From a virus: DNA of 5,530 bases. The notes below the pieces were generated by a model, which saw nothing but the letters and a program-made list of their open reading frames with translations, did not search any database and was not told the DNA's origin. Of this stretch, positions 3,139 through 5,497 are shown piece by piece; position 1 is the stretch's first letter; every line of letters starts with the position of its first letter. Both the position numbers and the translations under genes were made by a program. The stretch lies in the IMG/VR virus record IMGVR_UViG_3300045988_014784, positions 1-5,530 of that record. One strand, written 5' to 3'.

Positions 3139-3388
3139 CCTTTTTTTCCTCCATGGTTTTCTTGACCTGCTCGATGTTCCATTCCAGTTCCGGCATGATC
3201 GGCGTGATCAGGCCGGTTTCGGTGTCGTACTGCCCCAGATGATAGACCCGTTTATCCTCGCAGTCGCTTTTTTCCATCTCCTGGGTCATCCATTTGAAGG
3301 TGCGTTCCTTGACGATTGGATTGATTACCATGATGTTTCCGAAGGTTCCTGCCAGTTCATCCTTGATTGCATAAAGTTCAAAAGTCAT
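3131..3388 (-). CDS. VP5: VP5-like small nonstructural protein (85 aa; presumed analogue of phiX174 protein C in ssDNA synthesis/packaging)
   Basis: MTFELYAIKDELAGTFGNIMV...RTF...YHLGQYDTETGLI fits the gokushovirus VP5 pattern as I recall it (N-terminal Y.v.D......F; central R.F; LG.fD..TG.i). GGAGG 9 nt upstream. 11-nt overlap with the upstream ORF and 8-nt overlap with VP3. Confidence 0.65.
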   Translation of the reverse strand: MTFELYAIKDELAGTFGNIMVINPIVKERTFKWMTQEMEKSDCEDKRVYHLGQYDTETGLITPIMPELEWNIEQVKKTMEEKKDG

Positions 3389-3578
3389 TGTTGCTATCCT
3401 CCATAATTTCGTTGATGATATCGTTTTTGTGATATCTCATCCCATATTCGATTGCTTTTCGTGTCGCTGCCGGCACGCTGCATCCCAGATCTTCTGCCAG
3501 ATCATCAATTTCGGCTGCTGTGTCGTACCTCAGTCTGACTGTCAGTGTGCAGCATGCCATGTTCTTGATTTTCTTCAC
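3378..3578 (-). CDS. Ribbon-helix-helix (CopG/Arc/MetJ-like) putative DNA-binding protein, 66 aa, GTG start
   Basis: CTLTVRLRYD (beta strand), TAAEIDDLAEDLG (helix A), the G-x-S turn, then SVPAATRKAIEYGMRY (helix B) is a textbook RHH pattern. The GTG start at 3578 has GGGGAGGAA 7 nt upstream and forms a GTGA overlap with the stop of the preceding 39-aa gene. An alternative ATG at 3560 lacks an SD. Confidence 0.7.
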   Translation of the reverse strand: MKKIKNMACCTLTVRLRYDTAAEIDDLAEDLGCSVPAATRKAIEYGMRYHKNDIINEIMEDSNNDF

Positions 3579-3694
3579 AGTCGGATTCCTCCCCGGCTCG
3601 GTTTCGGGTTGACGTTGATTTTTTTGGTCTTTTTTGCTGTGTTGGTGAACACCTTCTTGTCGGTTTTCGGTTTAACAGTGCTGCGGTATGCCAT
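3575..3694 (-). CDS. Small basic DNA-binding protein (39 aa; ORF8 / J-like), not in the supplied ORF track
   Basis: My translation is MAYRSTVKPKTDKKVFTNTAKKTKKINVNPKPSRGGIRL. It is highly basic and has the C-terminal RGGIR(L/F) motif seen in gokushovirus ORF8-type proteins. AAGGAGGA sits 6 nt upstream of the ATG. The start overlaps the upstream stop (TAATG) and the stop overlaps the downstream GTG (GTGA). Confidence 0.75.
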   Translation of the reverse strand: MAYRSTVKPKTDKKVFTNTAKKTKKINVNPKPSRGGIRL

Positions 3695-3801
3695 TACTCT
3701 TCCTCCTTATCGAGTTCCAGTGTGTGGTAGATCTTATCCAGCATGTGCAGGATTTTTTTGAGATGTCTGAAAATCGCGTTGATGTCTTGCAAAGTTACCA
3801 A
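3694..3801 (-). CDS. Hypothetical 35-aa peptide, TTG start (predicted amphipathic helix, acidic tail)
   Basis: AAGGAGG (3817..3811) lies 9 nt upstream of TTG at 3801. There is no in-frame ATG upstream (in-frame TAG further up). Translation MVTLQDINAIFRHLKKILHMLDKIYHTLELDKEEE. The TAA stop shares its last A with the ATG of the next gene, which is a translational-coupling geometry. No homology recognised. Confidence 0.35.
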   Translation of the reverse strand: MVTLQDINAIFRHLKKILHMLDKIYHTLELDKEEE

Positions 3802-3840: not shown

Positions 3841-3868
3841 ATTCTATCAAAAAAAAAAAAAAAAACAA
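3841..3868 (-). promoter_or_regulatory. Candidate late promoter: TTGTTT (-35-like) - N16 - TGATAGAAT (extended -10), overlapping the terminator T-tract
   Basis: The minus strand reads CCACCTTG-T17(last T shared)-GATAGAATGG. TGnTAGAAT matches the extended -10 consensus at TG plus 5/6 positions, and the T-tract could act as an UP-like element. It lies about 25 nt upstream of the first late-gene SD. Only sequence logic supports this call. Confidence 0.35.
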
Positions 3869-3889
3869 GGTGGAATTTTGTCCACCTTG
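3849..3889 (-). terminator. Rho-independent terminator downstream of Rep: 9-bp perfect stem, 6-nt loop, 17-T tail
   Basis: Minus strand: CAAGGTGGA-CAAAAT-TCCACCTTG followed immediately by 17 T. On the plus strand these are caaggtgga 3866..3874, the loop 3875..3880, tccaccttg 3881..3889 and A17 at 3849..3865. Confidence 0.8.
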
Positions 3890-3907
3890 CTGATTTTATG
3901 GTTGTTG

Positions 3908-3949
3908 GCTGTCCGGTCGGCCGTGGTCGGCCGACGATTAGAGGACAGC
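3908..3949 (-). repeat. Compound GC-rich stem-loop in the Rep-distal noncoding region (outer 7-bp stem plus inner 8-bp stem with tetraloop)
   Basis: Outer stem pairs gctgtcc 3908..3914 with ggacagc 3943..3949. Inner stem pairs gtcggccg 3916..3923 with cggccgac 3928..3935, with loop tggt. The element contains a GTCGGCCG direct repeat and the 10-bp perfect palindrome gtcggccgac (3926..3935). No ORF is possible here. Confidence 0.85.
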
Positions 3950-4012: not shown

Positions 4013-5116
4013 TCAGACTTCTGTGCGTATGAGTTTGCTCATTCGTTCTTGCATTTTTTTGTCTTTCAGGTTATAATAGTCCTGCATGGTCAGGCCGGTT
4101 TGCTTGAGCTGAGCAAAGAGAGCGTCGTTTGCGATTCTTCGGCGTTCTCGTTTGATTGCTTTCAGTTCTTCAGATTCGGCTTTTTCTGTTATATCTTCGA
4201 TTTTTTGAACTTCTTCATCTGTCAGTGGCTTTGCTCCATGGTCGATGTCGAACAGCTTGTCAAAATATCTTGGCGGTTTACAGATTTTTCCGTTCTTCAG
4301 CTGTATCTGATCTTTTTCGTAGATTTCTGCTGCATGGTCATAGTAGTATTGTGCACCGATTGCCGGTTTTTTGCTCATAAGGCATTGTTCCGGCATAATG
4401 CCTAATTCTTCATAAAATTTTTTGCCGTCCTTTCCGTAAATCTTTTTTGTTGTGTACCTTGCTGTGTATGCCATAGATCGCCATTCTGCTGGTGCTAGGA
4501 TGACGTGTCCCATGCCCCAGATTTTTTCTAGCCATTCGCAGTTATAGTATGTGAATCCTCTTTCTTTCTTGTAAACTTTTAAATCTTCCTGTTTTATTGG
4601 TAGATCGTAGACAATTGCGTGATAGTGTGGTCTGTGTGTCTGGCTGCCGTATTCGCCAGCTTGGAAATACATCAGCTTGCCTTTTCCTTTTTCGTGGTAT
4701 TCTATGTGCCTTCTGAGACGTTTCCAGAATTTTTGCATGTCCTCATAGCACAGACTGAGGTTTTCTGTTATTACTTCGCCTGTCAGTGTGTCCCATGTCG
4801 CTTTATATGGGACATTTTCGTTATTATAGGTGATTGTTAGGAACCATGCGTTTTTATGGTATGGCAGCTCCATTTCCATCCGGTTCGCCCAGGACGCAGC
4901 GTTTGCCATTTTGCATCCAGGACAGTGCCCGCATGGTAGCAGCTGAGCATTCTGTTCTTTGAGTAGTTTTTTAATTCGCTGTTCGTTCCACTTCTGCTGT
5001 TTTTGATCTGCGTCAAACTCTAGCTTTTCGCCTGTTTTTGACAAGTATGCCTTCAGGCTGACCACTCTTTCTTGTCTGTTGATGACGGTTCTAACCAATG
5101 GCCTCGTACATGGCAT
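4013..5116 (-). CDS. VP4: Replication initiation protein VP4 (HUH rolling-circle endonuclease, phiX174 gene A family), 367 aa from the preferred start
   Basis: RCR motif 1 FLTITY. Motif 2 RPHYHAIVY (HUH). Motif 3 AYTARYTTKK, two Tyr spaced as in phiX174 A (Y-x-x-x-Y-x-x-K). Cys cluster PCGHCPGC and the MSKKPAIG motif are also present. The preferred start is ATG at 5116 (MPCTRPLV..., the common M-x-C-x-x-P Rep N-terminus), with GGAAGGAGG 12 nt upstream. The track ORF runs 24 codons further up to 5188, through a 16-bp hairpin and without an SD. Confidence 0.93.
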   Translation of the reverse strand: MPCTRPLVRTVINRQERVVSLKAYLSKTGEKLEFDADQKQQKWNEQRIKKLLKEQNAQLLPCGHCPGCKMANAASWANRMEMELPYHKNAWFLTITYNNENVPYKATWDTLTGEVITENLSLCYEDMQKFWKRLRRHIEYHEKGKGKLMYFQAGEYGSQTHRPHYHAIVYDLPIKQEDLKVYKKERGFTYYNCEWLEKIWGMGHVILAPAEWRSMAYTARYTTKKIYGKDGKKFYEELGIMPEQCLMSKKPAIGAQYYYDHAAEIYEKDQIQLKNGKICKPPRYFDKLFDIDHGAKPLTDEEVQKIEDITEKAESEELKAIKRERRRIANDALFAQLKQTGLTMQDYYNLKDKKMQERMSKLIRTEV

Positions 5117-5140
5117 AGATGTTTCATGCCTCCTTCCCTG

Positions 5141-5181
5141 AATGGGCCCCAATAACCTTCTTGATGTTATTGGGGCCCATT
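5141..5181. repeat. Perfect 16-bp inverted repeat with 9-nt spacer, immediately upstream of the Rep SD
   Basis: aatgggccccaataac (5141..5156), cttcttgat (5157..5165), gttattggggcccatt (5166..5181). The arms are exact reverse complements. There is no T-run after it on the minus strand, so it is not a canonical terminator. Confidence 0.95.
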
Positions 5182-5256
5182 GACACAATTTTTAGATGCT
5201 GCTTGCTTCTCGTTATGGATAAATGTTGCTTCCCTGAGTGAGGCGGTAGCCGTAAC

Positions 5257-5427
5257 TCATGCTGTTTTTTGGTATCCCAGTGCTTCTGCGTATTCGTCAA
5301 TAGCATCTCTTATGATATCACTGTCGATATATTTATCATACAGTTTGCATGTTTTGATGAACTCTAGCTCTTCGATCTGTTTTTGTGTCAGGTTGATGTT
5401 CATTCTTTTTGCCATTTGACTTCTCAT
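5257..5427 (-). CDS. Small RHH-like putative transcriptional regulator (56 aa), not in the supplied ORF track
   Basis: ATG at 5427 with AGGAGGG (5440..5434) 6 nt upstream; TGA at 5259..5257. My translation is MRSQMAKRMNINLTQKQIEELEFIKTCKLYDKYIDSDIIRDAIDEYAEALGYQKTA. The pattern is a basic N-terminus, a short beta strand (RMNINL) and two helices (TQKQIEELEFIK; SDIIRDAIDEYAEAL), which is RHH-like. It is the first gene after the consensus promoter. Confidence 0.65.
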   Translation of the reverse strand: MRSQMAKRMNINLTQKQIEELEFIKTCKLYDKYIDSDIIRDAIDEYAEALGYQKTA

Positions 5428-5468: not shown

Positions 5469-5497
5469 ATTATACACCTCCTTTGTTTGTTTGTCAA
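5469..5497 (-). promoter_or_regulatory. Consensus sigma70-type promoter (TTGACA - 17 nt - TATAAT) for the RHH-Rep early unit
   Basis: Minus strand: TAA(VP2 stop)-TTGACA(5497..5492)-AACAAACAAAGGAGGTG(17 nt)-TATAAT(5474..5469). Both hexamers match the consensus 6/6 at optimal spacing. The location is the 70-nt gap between the VP2 stop and the RHH-like ORF. Confidence 0.75.

Follow-up and report, generated by a model that had tools for sequence, protein, structure and literature searches.

The origin of phiX174 is a 30-nt sequence on the gene-sense (virion) strand that lies inside gene A and reads cccccAACTTG|ATATTAATAACACTATAGACCAC, with the rep_origin annotated at 4306 (AACTTG|ATATTAAT). A GACCAC sequence follows at 21 nt from CTTG across an A/T-rich spacer, and the origin has neither a 5´ arm nor a hairpin. 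The nick core CTTG|ATA is reportedly common to phiX174 and the double-strand origins of the pC194/pUB110 plasmid family, which differs in its Rep_1 protein with a single tyrosine and in the lack of packaging. Within the phiX double-strand origin, the nick and binding sites are separate (PMC5714925), and the Reps of Bullavirinae and Gokushovirinae are monophyletic (PMC6668415). The origins of CRESS-DNA viruses (circoviruses, geminiviruses) consist of a G+C-rich stem with a 9-nt loop just upstream of rep, in which the loop is conserved and the stem covaries. In reekeekee- and roodoodooviruses, intergenic hairpins by Rep have identical loops and variable stems with compensatory changes, and were tentatively read by the authors as complementary-strand origins (PMC9865509). 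Here we describe a hairpin in a complete-looking gokushovirus genome of 5,530 nt (the window, by which we mean the whole stretch of DNA analysed) and its counterparts across the Gokushovirinae.

Every gene of the window lies on the minus strand. VP5, VP3 (Chlamy_scaf), VP1 (Phage_F, E = 2.8e-162) and VP2 are present in addition to the genes listed in Table 1. Rep has an in-frame ATG at 5116, and PF23343 is its sole Pfam match, with no helicase domain found. Residues H164/H166 and Y217/Y221 (HUH, Y-x3-Y) are invariant in the Rep alignment, and BLASTP aligns the protein with phiX174 gpA over the HUH region (E = 3e-5). Because a terminator directly follows Rep, the small ORF, the putative origin hairpin and Rep form a transcription unit of their own before the structural genes. 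The 56-aa ORF at the head of this unit has no match in Pfam, NCBIfam, PDB sequences or Foldseek and no informative PHROG match; its AF2 monomer (a coil and two helices, pLDDT 77) is compatible with, rather than demonstrative of, a ribbon-helix-helix (RHH) fold. A different, longer small protein occupies this slot in the relative L002.

Table 1. Positions of the hairpin element and neighbouring features in the window, and of the corresponding elements in cultured phages.
Feature	Genome	Position	Strand	Remarks
Candidate origin hairpin	Window	5141..5181	+	5´ arm 5141-5156, loop 5157-5165, 3´ arm 5166-5181
CTTGAT core	Window	5160..5165	+	Within the loop; predicted nick G5163|A5164, by analogy with phiX174 G4305/A4306
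GACAC box	Window	5182..5186	+	Candidate Rep binding/recognition site; 22 nt from C5160; counterpart of phiX174 GACCAC
Sigma-70 promoter, TTGACA-17-TATAAT	Window	5469..5497	-	Matches consensus at 12/12; upstream of small ORF, hairpin and Rep; kept in relatives
56-aa ORF	Window	5257..5427	-	From ORF list; upstream of hairpin
Rep (VP4)	Window	4013..5116	-	Presumed HUH rolling-circle initiator of the hairpin; Pfam PF23343, E = 2.4e-14
Rep Shine-Dalgarno (SD), GGAAGGAGG	Window	5129..5137	-	From sequence; starts 3 nt past the hairpin end on the mRNA strand
Intrinsic terminator	Window	3847..3891	-	11-bp stem + T17; closes the small-ORF/Rep transcription unit
Element	Chp2	2904-2941	gene-sense	CTAGCGTATAACAG TCTACTTGAT CTGTTATACGCTAG gtgatagc
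Element	SpV4	512-544	gene-sense	Loop ATTACTTGTTATA
Element	phiMH2K	3296-3335	gene-sense	Loop ..CTACTTGTTGTAA

Several further features of the region were observed. GTGTA repeats overlie the promoter -10/+1 in relatives. The interval from the small ORF to the hairpin contains a block, AACATTTATCCAT (5215-5227, minus strand; consensus AACAWWWATCCAT), that is retained in relatives with as little as 48% Rep identity and might be part of the origin region or a complementary-strand signal. Just past the small ORF, a second small hairpin, GATTTTGCCGGG-N4-CCCGGCCAAATC, is found in L001 (5481-5508), L002 (5492-5517), L003 (5422-5449) and L004 (5491-5518) and is absent from the window and its closest relatives. 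Between the Rep stop codon and the terminator (3916-3935 of the window) stands a perfect, G+C-rich palindrome, GTCGGCCG-N4-CGGCCGAC. The gap between Rep and VP5 (3378-3801, minus strand) is apparently non-coding and contains three small ORFs with no match in Pfam or PHROGs: one of 35 aa with a TTG start and a good SD; a very basic peptide of 38 aa, MAYRSTVKPKTDKK...RGGIRL, which is likely a J/VP8-type DNA-binding protein; and one of 66 aa that starts with GTG and resembles RHH proteins in its sequence pattern.

The hairpin is the sole long perfect inverted repeat in the window. Its geometry, noted in a preliminary description of the sequence, was confirmed: the arms of 16 nt pair at 16 of 16 positions around a 9-nt loop that reads CTTCTTGAT on the plus strand of the window and ATCAAGAAG on the gene-sense (minus) strand. 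Folding as ssDNA gives -18.1 kcal/mol compared with -6.65 ± 1.89 for shuffled sequences (z = -6.06), and none of 200 shuffles is as stable. A terminator scan made no call at the hairpin, and the stem is not followed by a T/U run (CAGGGAAGG on the minus strand, GACACAATTTTT on the plus strand). Nor is such a run conserved in relatives, and an intrinsic terminator on either strand was rejected. An antisense RNA for which the hairpin would serve as the terminator, by analogy with RNAII of pMV158, was rejected on the same T-run evidence and because no antisense promoter was seen. Inspection revealed no resemblance to a dif/XerCD site. A search against Rfam 15 returned only a noise match to mir-7939 (21.7 bits vs a gathering score of 75), and a known RNA family was thus rejected. 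A 60-aa ORF over the hairpin (5306..5124) was judged not to be coding, since the 9–14-nt loops of relatives shift its frame.

The same structure is present 20–32 nt upstream of the Rep ATG in all 53 IMG/VR Rep relatives. Across these and four GenBank relatives (Rep 48–98% identical), the stems vary around an invariant loop. The four GenBank genomes, which are gut gokushoviruses (~72% identical to the window), carry an 18-bp hairpin with a 9-nt loop in the same place, with compensatory changes. Loops of the relatives measure 9–14 nt. On the gene strand the loop constantly reads RTCAAGARG and the 5´ flank TTTTGTGTCA, while the stems vary widely (GGGCCCCAATAAC, GGGCCCCTATAAC, CCTAGCCCC, GTAAGCCCC, GGGGGGAATAGAC, GGGGGGAAATGT). 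In an alignment of 23 distinct sequences, two-sided compensatory changes occur in 13 of the 18 stem pairs, and 95.9% of cells are paired compared with 81.6% after shuffling, a value that none of 500 shuffles equals; slid controls reach at most 45%. Wobble pairs occupy only three of 414 cells. Such a constant loop on a variable stem marks a folded nucleic-acid element that is read in its loop. The conservation of a stem-loop at the VP4 5´ flank, to which the preliminary description had looked for support, is thereby established.

This pattern bears on two readings that place the function of the hairpin in gene expression. The first takes it as a structure of the mRNA 5´-UTR that governs the translation of Rep or the stability of the transcript. 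In favour of this, the transcript carries the hairpin between the small ORF and Rep, at 3 nt from the SD; in both the window clade and L108 the hairpin immediately precedes the SD of Rep; and the stem is stable as RNA. However, in the RNA fold the SD lies outside the stem and is unpaired, which removes the SD occlusion proposed earlier. In addition, G.U intermediates are almost absent from the 414 cells, Rfam has no match, and in other clades the element lies on the opposite strand at up to ~1.4 kb from Rep, where an RNA would read differently. We regard this reading as very unlikely; an mRNA function is at most a secondary role in the window clade. The second takes the inverted repeat as a double-stranded operator for the small upstream protein, proposed to be RHH, or for another dimeric DNA-binding protein. 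The palindrome adjoins a small ORF with an RHH-like sequence pattern, and an operon of a small ORF and Rep resembles copG-repB of pMV158. An operator would be expected to have conserved half-sites and a free spacer, whereas the arms compensate each other and the spacer is invariant. Moreover, Chp2, SpV4, phiMH2K and many other genomes carry the element with no such ORF annotated next to it, the hairpin does not lie at the promoter, where the GTGTA repeats are better operator candidates for the small protein, and the sequence and structure searches lend no support to an RHH fold of the 56-aa ORF. The operator suggested in the preliminary description is scarcely tenable.

A strong hairpin is also found in dozens of distant gokushoviruses with Reps 30–47% identical. 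On the gene-sense strand these read [stem]-..CTTGAT..-[stem]-(A/G)GTGACAC, the arrangement of the window clade in reverse complement. We defined the element as a hairpin of at least 8 bp with CTTG(A/T)N in the loop and a GAC-type box 21–22 nt from CTTG; the window has such an element, and so do ~100 other contigs. In each of the cultured phages Chp2, SpV4 and phiMH2K, it is the strongest hairpin of the gene-sense strand (Table 1) and has the same architecture as in the window, but differs in its strand, which is gene-sense, and in its intergenic position. The location varies among genomes and includes the VP2-VP4 intergenic region, the VP3-ORF8 region and a site ~1 kb downstream of Rep. Counted from the C of CTTG, the GAC box follows at 21 nt in 27 loci and at 22 nt in 74 (together 101 of 104 loci), a spacing that holds despite stems of 9–19 bp and loops of 6–18 nt. 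Among 118 distinct elements with the core consensus YCCYW-CTTGAT-GTWA, CTTG is invariant, as preset by the search pattern, and the following A and T have frequencies of 0.91 and 0.97. Stem mismatches, read on the CTTGAT strand, are G.T in six cases and A.C in one, which are small numbers. With this strict pattern, which itself required CTTG, 92 of 264 deduplicated loci gave no element, and many of these 92 loci are partial.

The core of the element resembles the phiX174 origin, which agrees with the consensus at nearly every position. The two share the CTTG|AT core, a pyrimidine-rich stretch on its 5´ side, the T/A pattern that follows and GAC(C)AC 21–22 nt on, and the spacing in phiX174 is the same as in gokushoviruses. 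L128 reads ACTTGATATTA and is identical to phiX174 at 11 of 11 positions. In the window, 10 of the 12 positions of CTTGATGTTATT (5160-5171, plus strand) agree with the phiX174 core CTTGATATTAAT. That match alone is not significant, since 0.49 such matches are expected by chance, close to the earlier rough estimate of about 0.4, and 76 of 200 shuffles contain one; the significance of the hairpin rests on the comparative data and not on the single sequence. An additional likeness proposed earlier, between AATAACA in the arm and the phiX origin, proved to be due to chance, as this part of the stem covaries freely (ATAGAC, AATGTA and others). The pattern CTTGW-N17-GAYA matches the window once, at the hairpin element. 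No sense-strand copy of the CTTG/GAC element was found in the window, where the other pattern match is only the T run of the terminator. The cognate Reps of phiX174 and the window are homologous HUH proteins with two tyrosines. The element of the window differs from the phiX174 origin in being intergenic, in lying on the antisense strand and in its spacer, which is the 3´ arm GTTATTGGGGCCCATT of a G+C-rich 16-bp stem and not A/T-rich and hairpin-free. The comparison with CRESS-DNA origins made in the preliminary description holds for shape, that is, for the 9-nt loop with a predicted nick between positions 7 and 8 and for the G+C-rich covarying stem just upstream of rep, but not for sequence or Rep type: the loop is not NANTATTAC, Rep has two tyrosines and no SF3 helicase, and no iterons were seen. 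The element also resembles the reekeekee- and roodoodoovirus hairpins as these have been described.

With the CTTG motif, the 21–22-nt spacing to GACAC and the phiX174 layout conserved across the Gokushovirinae, the earlier reading as an origin has gained in strength, and from its sequence features the hairpin is quite probably an origin of replication. Because the distance from the loop motif to GACAC is fixed, Rep fits better than host priming factors, and we read the element as a viral-strand origin. We have moderate confidence that it is specifically a viral-strand (double-strand) rolling-circle origin, homologous to that of phiX174, that has been inverted, with the antisense strand displaced and packaged.

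Alternatively, the hairpin may be a complementary-strand (single-strand) origin that folds on virion ssDNA and recruits primase, RNA polymerase or PriA, with Rep nicking elsewhere. Both phiX174 and G4 use intergenic hairpins to start the second strand. The covariation is almost purely Watson-Crick, and G.T mismatches prevail on the CTTGAT strand; both fit a structure of ssDNA. To our knowledge, a single 41-nt hairpin is unlike ssoA/ssoU or the multi-hairpin origin of G4, which counts against such a role. Since an element of this kind works in one orientation, it would account equally well for the link between orientation and the mutation spectrum described below, and the conserved, covarying hairpins that precede Rep in reekeekee- and roodoodooviruses have tentatively been so read (PMC9865509). 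However, the invariant part of the element is the phiX174 nick core at the phiX GAC(C)AC spacing, a motif that the phiX primosome site does not have, and the window has no second phiX-like nick motif at which Rep could act. We consider a single-strand origin unlikely; it would imply antisense packaging too.

The orientation of the element relative to the genes divides the deduplicated loci into two classes: it is on the sense strand in 99 (normal loci) and on the antisense strand in 73 (inverted loci), and no locus has both. The inverted loci comprise the window clade, which is monophyletic, L107/L108, the L239 clade and L303; the independent inversions number effectively only 3–4. Trees were built by neighbour-joining and midpoint-rooted, and ancestral states were assigned by parsimony. 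Complementary-strand genes are otherwise unreported in the family, according to Roux et al. (PMC3394797). The preliminary description had noticed that CTTGAT lies on the strand antisense to the genes and had treated this as a caveat; the observation is correct, but the placement turns out to be the key feature of the element. As the whole element is inverted with respect to the genes, the strand displaced and packaged is expected to be antisense to all of them, and we propose that the plus strand is the functional, nicked strand.

Base composition at 4-fold sites differs between the classes. On the gene-sense strand of the window, A is at 0.46 and T at 0.10, compared with T 0.58 and A 0.08 in phiX174 and T 0.50 in Chp2. 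Normal loci have a median skew (T-A)/(T+A) of +0.37 (range -0.44 to 0.82) and inverted loci one of -0.63 (range -0.81 to -0.28), and the ranges overlap between the classes. AT skew alone is therefore not decisive for polarity, and polarised substitution spectra were used instead. Some loci have A-rich 4-fold sites despite a normal orientation (L142, L181, L284, L287, L291, L302 and L146, which is phiMH2K; skew -0.3 to -0.44). In these A-rich normal gokushoviruses C is far more frequent than G, and the substitution asymmetry is weak and not reversed (1.27 in the L284 group). L278 has a skew of about -0.6, and no element was found in it with the pattern used; it could be a further inverted lineage with a divergent origin. 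A prospective prediction from skew was successful: L194 was picked by its skew of -0.80 alone, and the full contig and seven relatives all have the inverted element.

Substitutions at 4-fold sites were polarised on the gene-sense strand and normalised per base, with the C5 group left out. The C>T/G>A ratio is 0.27, 0.28, 0.15, 0.00, 0.35, 0.37 and 0.00 in seven inverted groups and 1.54, 3.56, 4.07, 6.86, 1.71, 1.52 and 1.27 in seven normal groups, the last value being that of the A-rich L284 group (C8). Transitions thus part the classes completely (≤0.37 vs ≥1.27). The G>T/C>A ratio is 0.28, 0.23, 0.04, 0.67, 0.24, 0.15 and 0.61 in the inverted groups and 3.18, 2.30, 7.26, 5.90, 0.68, 13.1 and 1.57 in the normal groups (the last again the L284 group). 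These spectra come from synonymous sites and are tied to base composition, so that mutation bias is not fully separable from codon selection. That the single-stranded genome of ssDNA phages is biased towards C>T is an established finding (PMC3278643, PMC4032129). An excess of C>T and G>T is the expected damage signature of the strand that passes through a single-stranded phase, which in the inverted clades points to the antisense strand. The inversion of the element and the mirrored spectra together make antisense packaging the simplest explanation, and this holds for a double-strand as well as a single-strand origin since the element works in one orientation.

The contrary reading is that the hairpin is origin-related and the polarity unchanged, with Rep acting on the sense loop or elsewhere and the asymmetries arising from the codon usage of the hosts. 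All characterised microviruses package the sense strand. Some normal genomes, including phiMH2K, have more A than T at 4-fold sites, and composition can thus drift for other reasons. In GC skew the inverted clades are no mirror image (median 0.01 vs 0.29). However, the inverted clades keep on their antisense strand CTTGAT and GACAC identical to the sense motif of the others, and a Rep that reads the complement is unlikely. The transition ratio splits the classes even when the A-rich normal group is included, and the skew-based prediction of an inverted element held. Most gut loci (L005-L142), in both orientations, come from the same metagenome (3300045988), which suggests a similar host background for those. 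We judge an unchanged polarity to be rather improbable, and the assumption of the preliminary description that the gene-sense strand is the viral one is disfavoured by both the orientation of the element and the mutation spectra.

It is likely, though unproven, that the window clade packages the strand antisense to its genes, which has not been reported for Microviridae. The balance tilts slightly towards a broader statement, that the window clade and at least two other independent lineages (L107/L108, the L239 clade and perhaps L303) have an inverted origin and package the mRNA-complementary strand, which would make them the first negative-sense Microviridae. We found no description of the element as an origin, or of antisense packaging, in the searchable literature; the genome papers of Chp2, SpV4 and phiMH2K might mention a hairpin.

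Under antisense packaging from a viral-strand origin, the element would consist of the loop with the nick core CTTG|AT, the 3´ arm as spacer and the GACAC box 21–22 nt on. Rep (VP4; HUH and Y-x3-Y) would recognise the loop motif and the box. The hairpin would be extruded from the supercoiled replicative form, so that the nick site is offered in single-stranded form, and Rep would cut the plus strand of the window at the predicted site (Table 1) and remain on the 5´ end. The 3´-OH would prime displacement synthesis, and after one round the displaced plus strand would be recircularised by Rep and then packaged. Cleavage by VP4, the exact position of the nick and the polarity of the virion DNA are here inferred.

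A precedent for the compositional effect exists in mitochondria, in which inversion of the control region reverses the strand compositional bias (PMC4182315). In both cases, inversion of the origin would swap the strand that becomes single-stranded, and the skew at 4-fold sites reverses. The mitochondrial case differs in that it concerns an organelle with strand-displacement replication, no packaging and no HUH Rep.

If the proposed reading is true, the viral-strand origin of the Gokushovirinae, long undefined, would be located in this hairpin, as a homologue of the phiX174 origin. Gokushoviruses rank with the commonest ssDNA phages of viromes from the gut and the environment. The hairpin, CTTG|AT and the GACAC box would provide a concrete substrate for nicking by VP4 and a landmark with which thousands of metagenomic genomes can be oriented and annotated. 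An inversion of ~50 nt would suffice to flip the polarity of a genome and would then reshape its codon usage from NNT to NNA. If polarity has flipped, the description of the family as positive-sense ssDNA viruses needs an exception, and the unusual A-ending codons of these clades would be explained by damage to the other strand. Knowledge of the packaged strand is needed for strand-specific ssDNA libraries, for hybridisation probes and for the synthetic rebooting of these phages. The inverted clades would then offer, like the mitochondrial control-region inversions, a natural experiment on how the single-stranded phase relates to mutation spectra.
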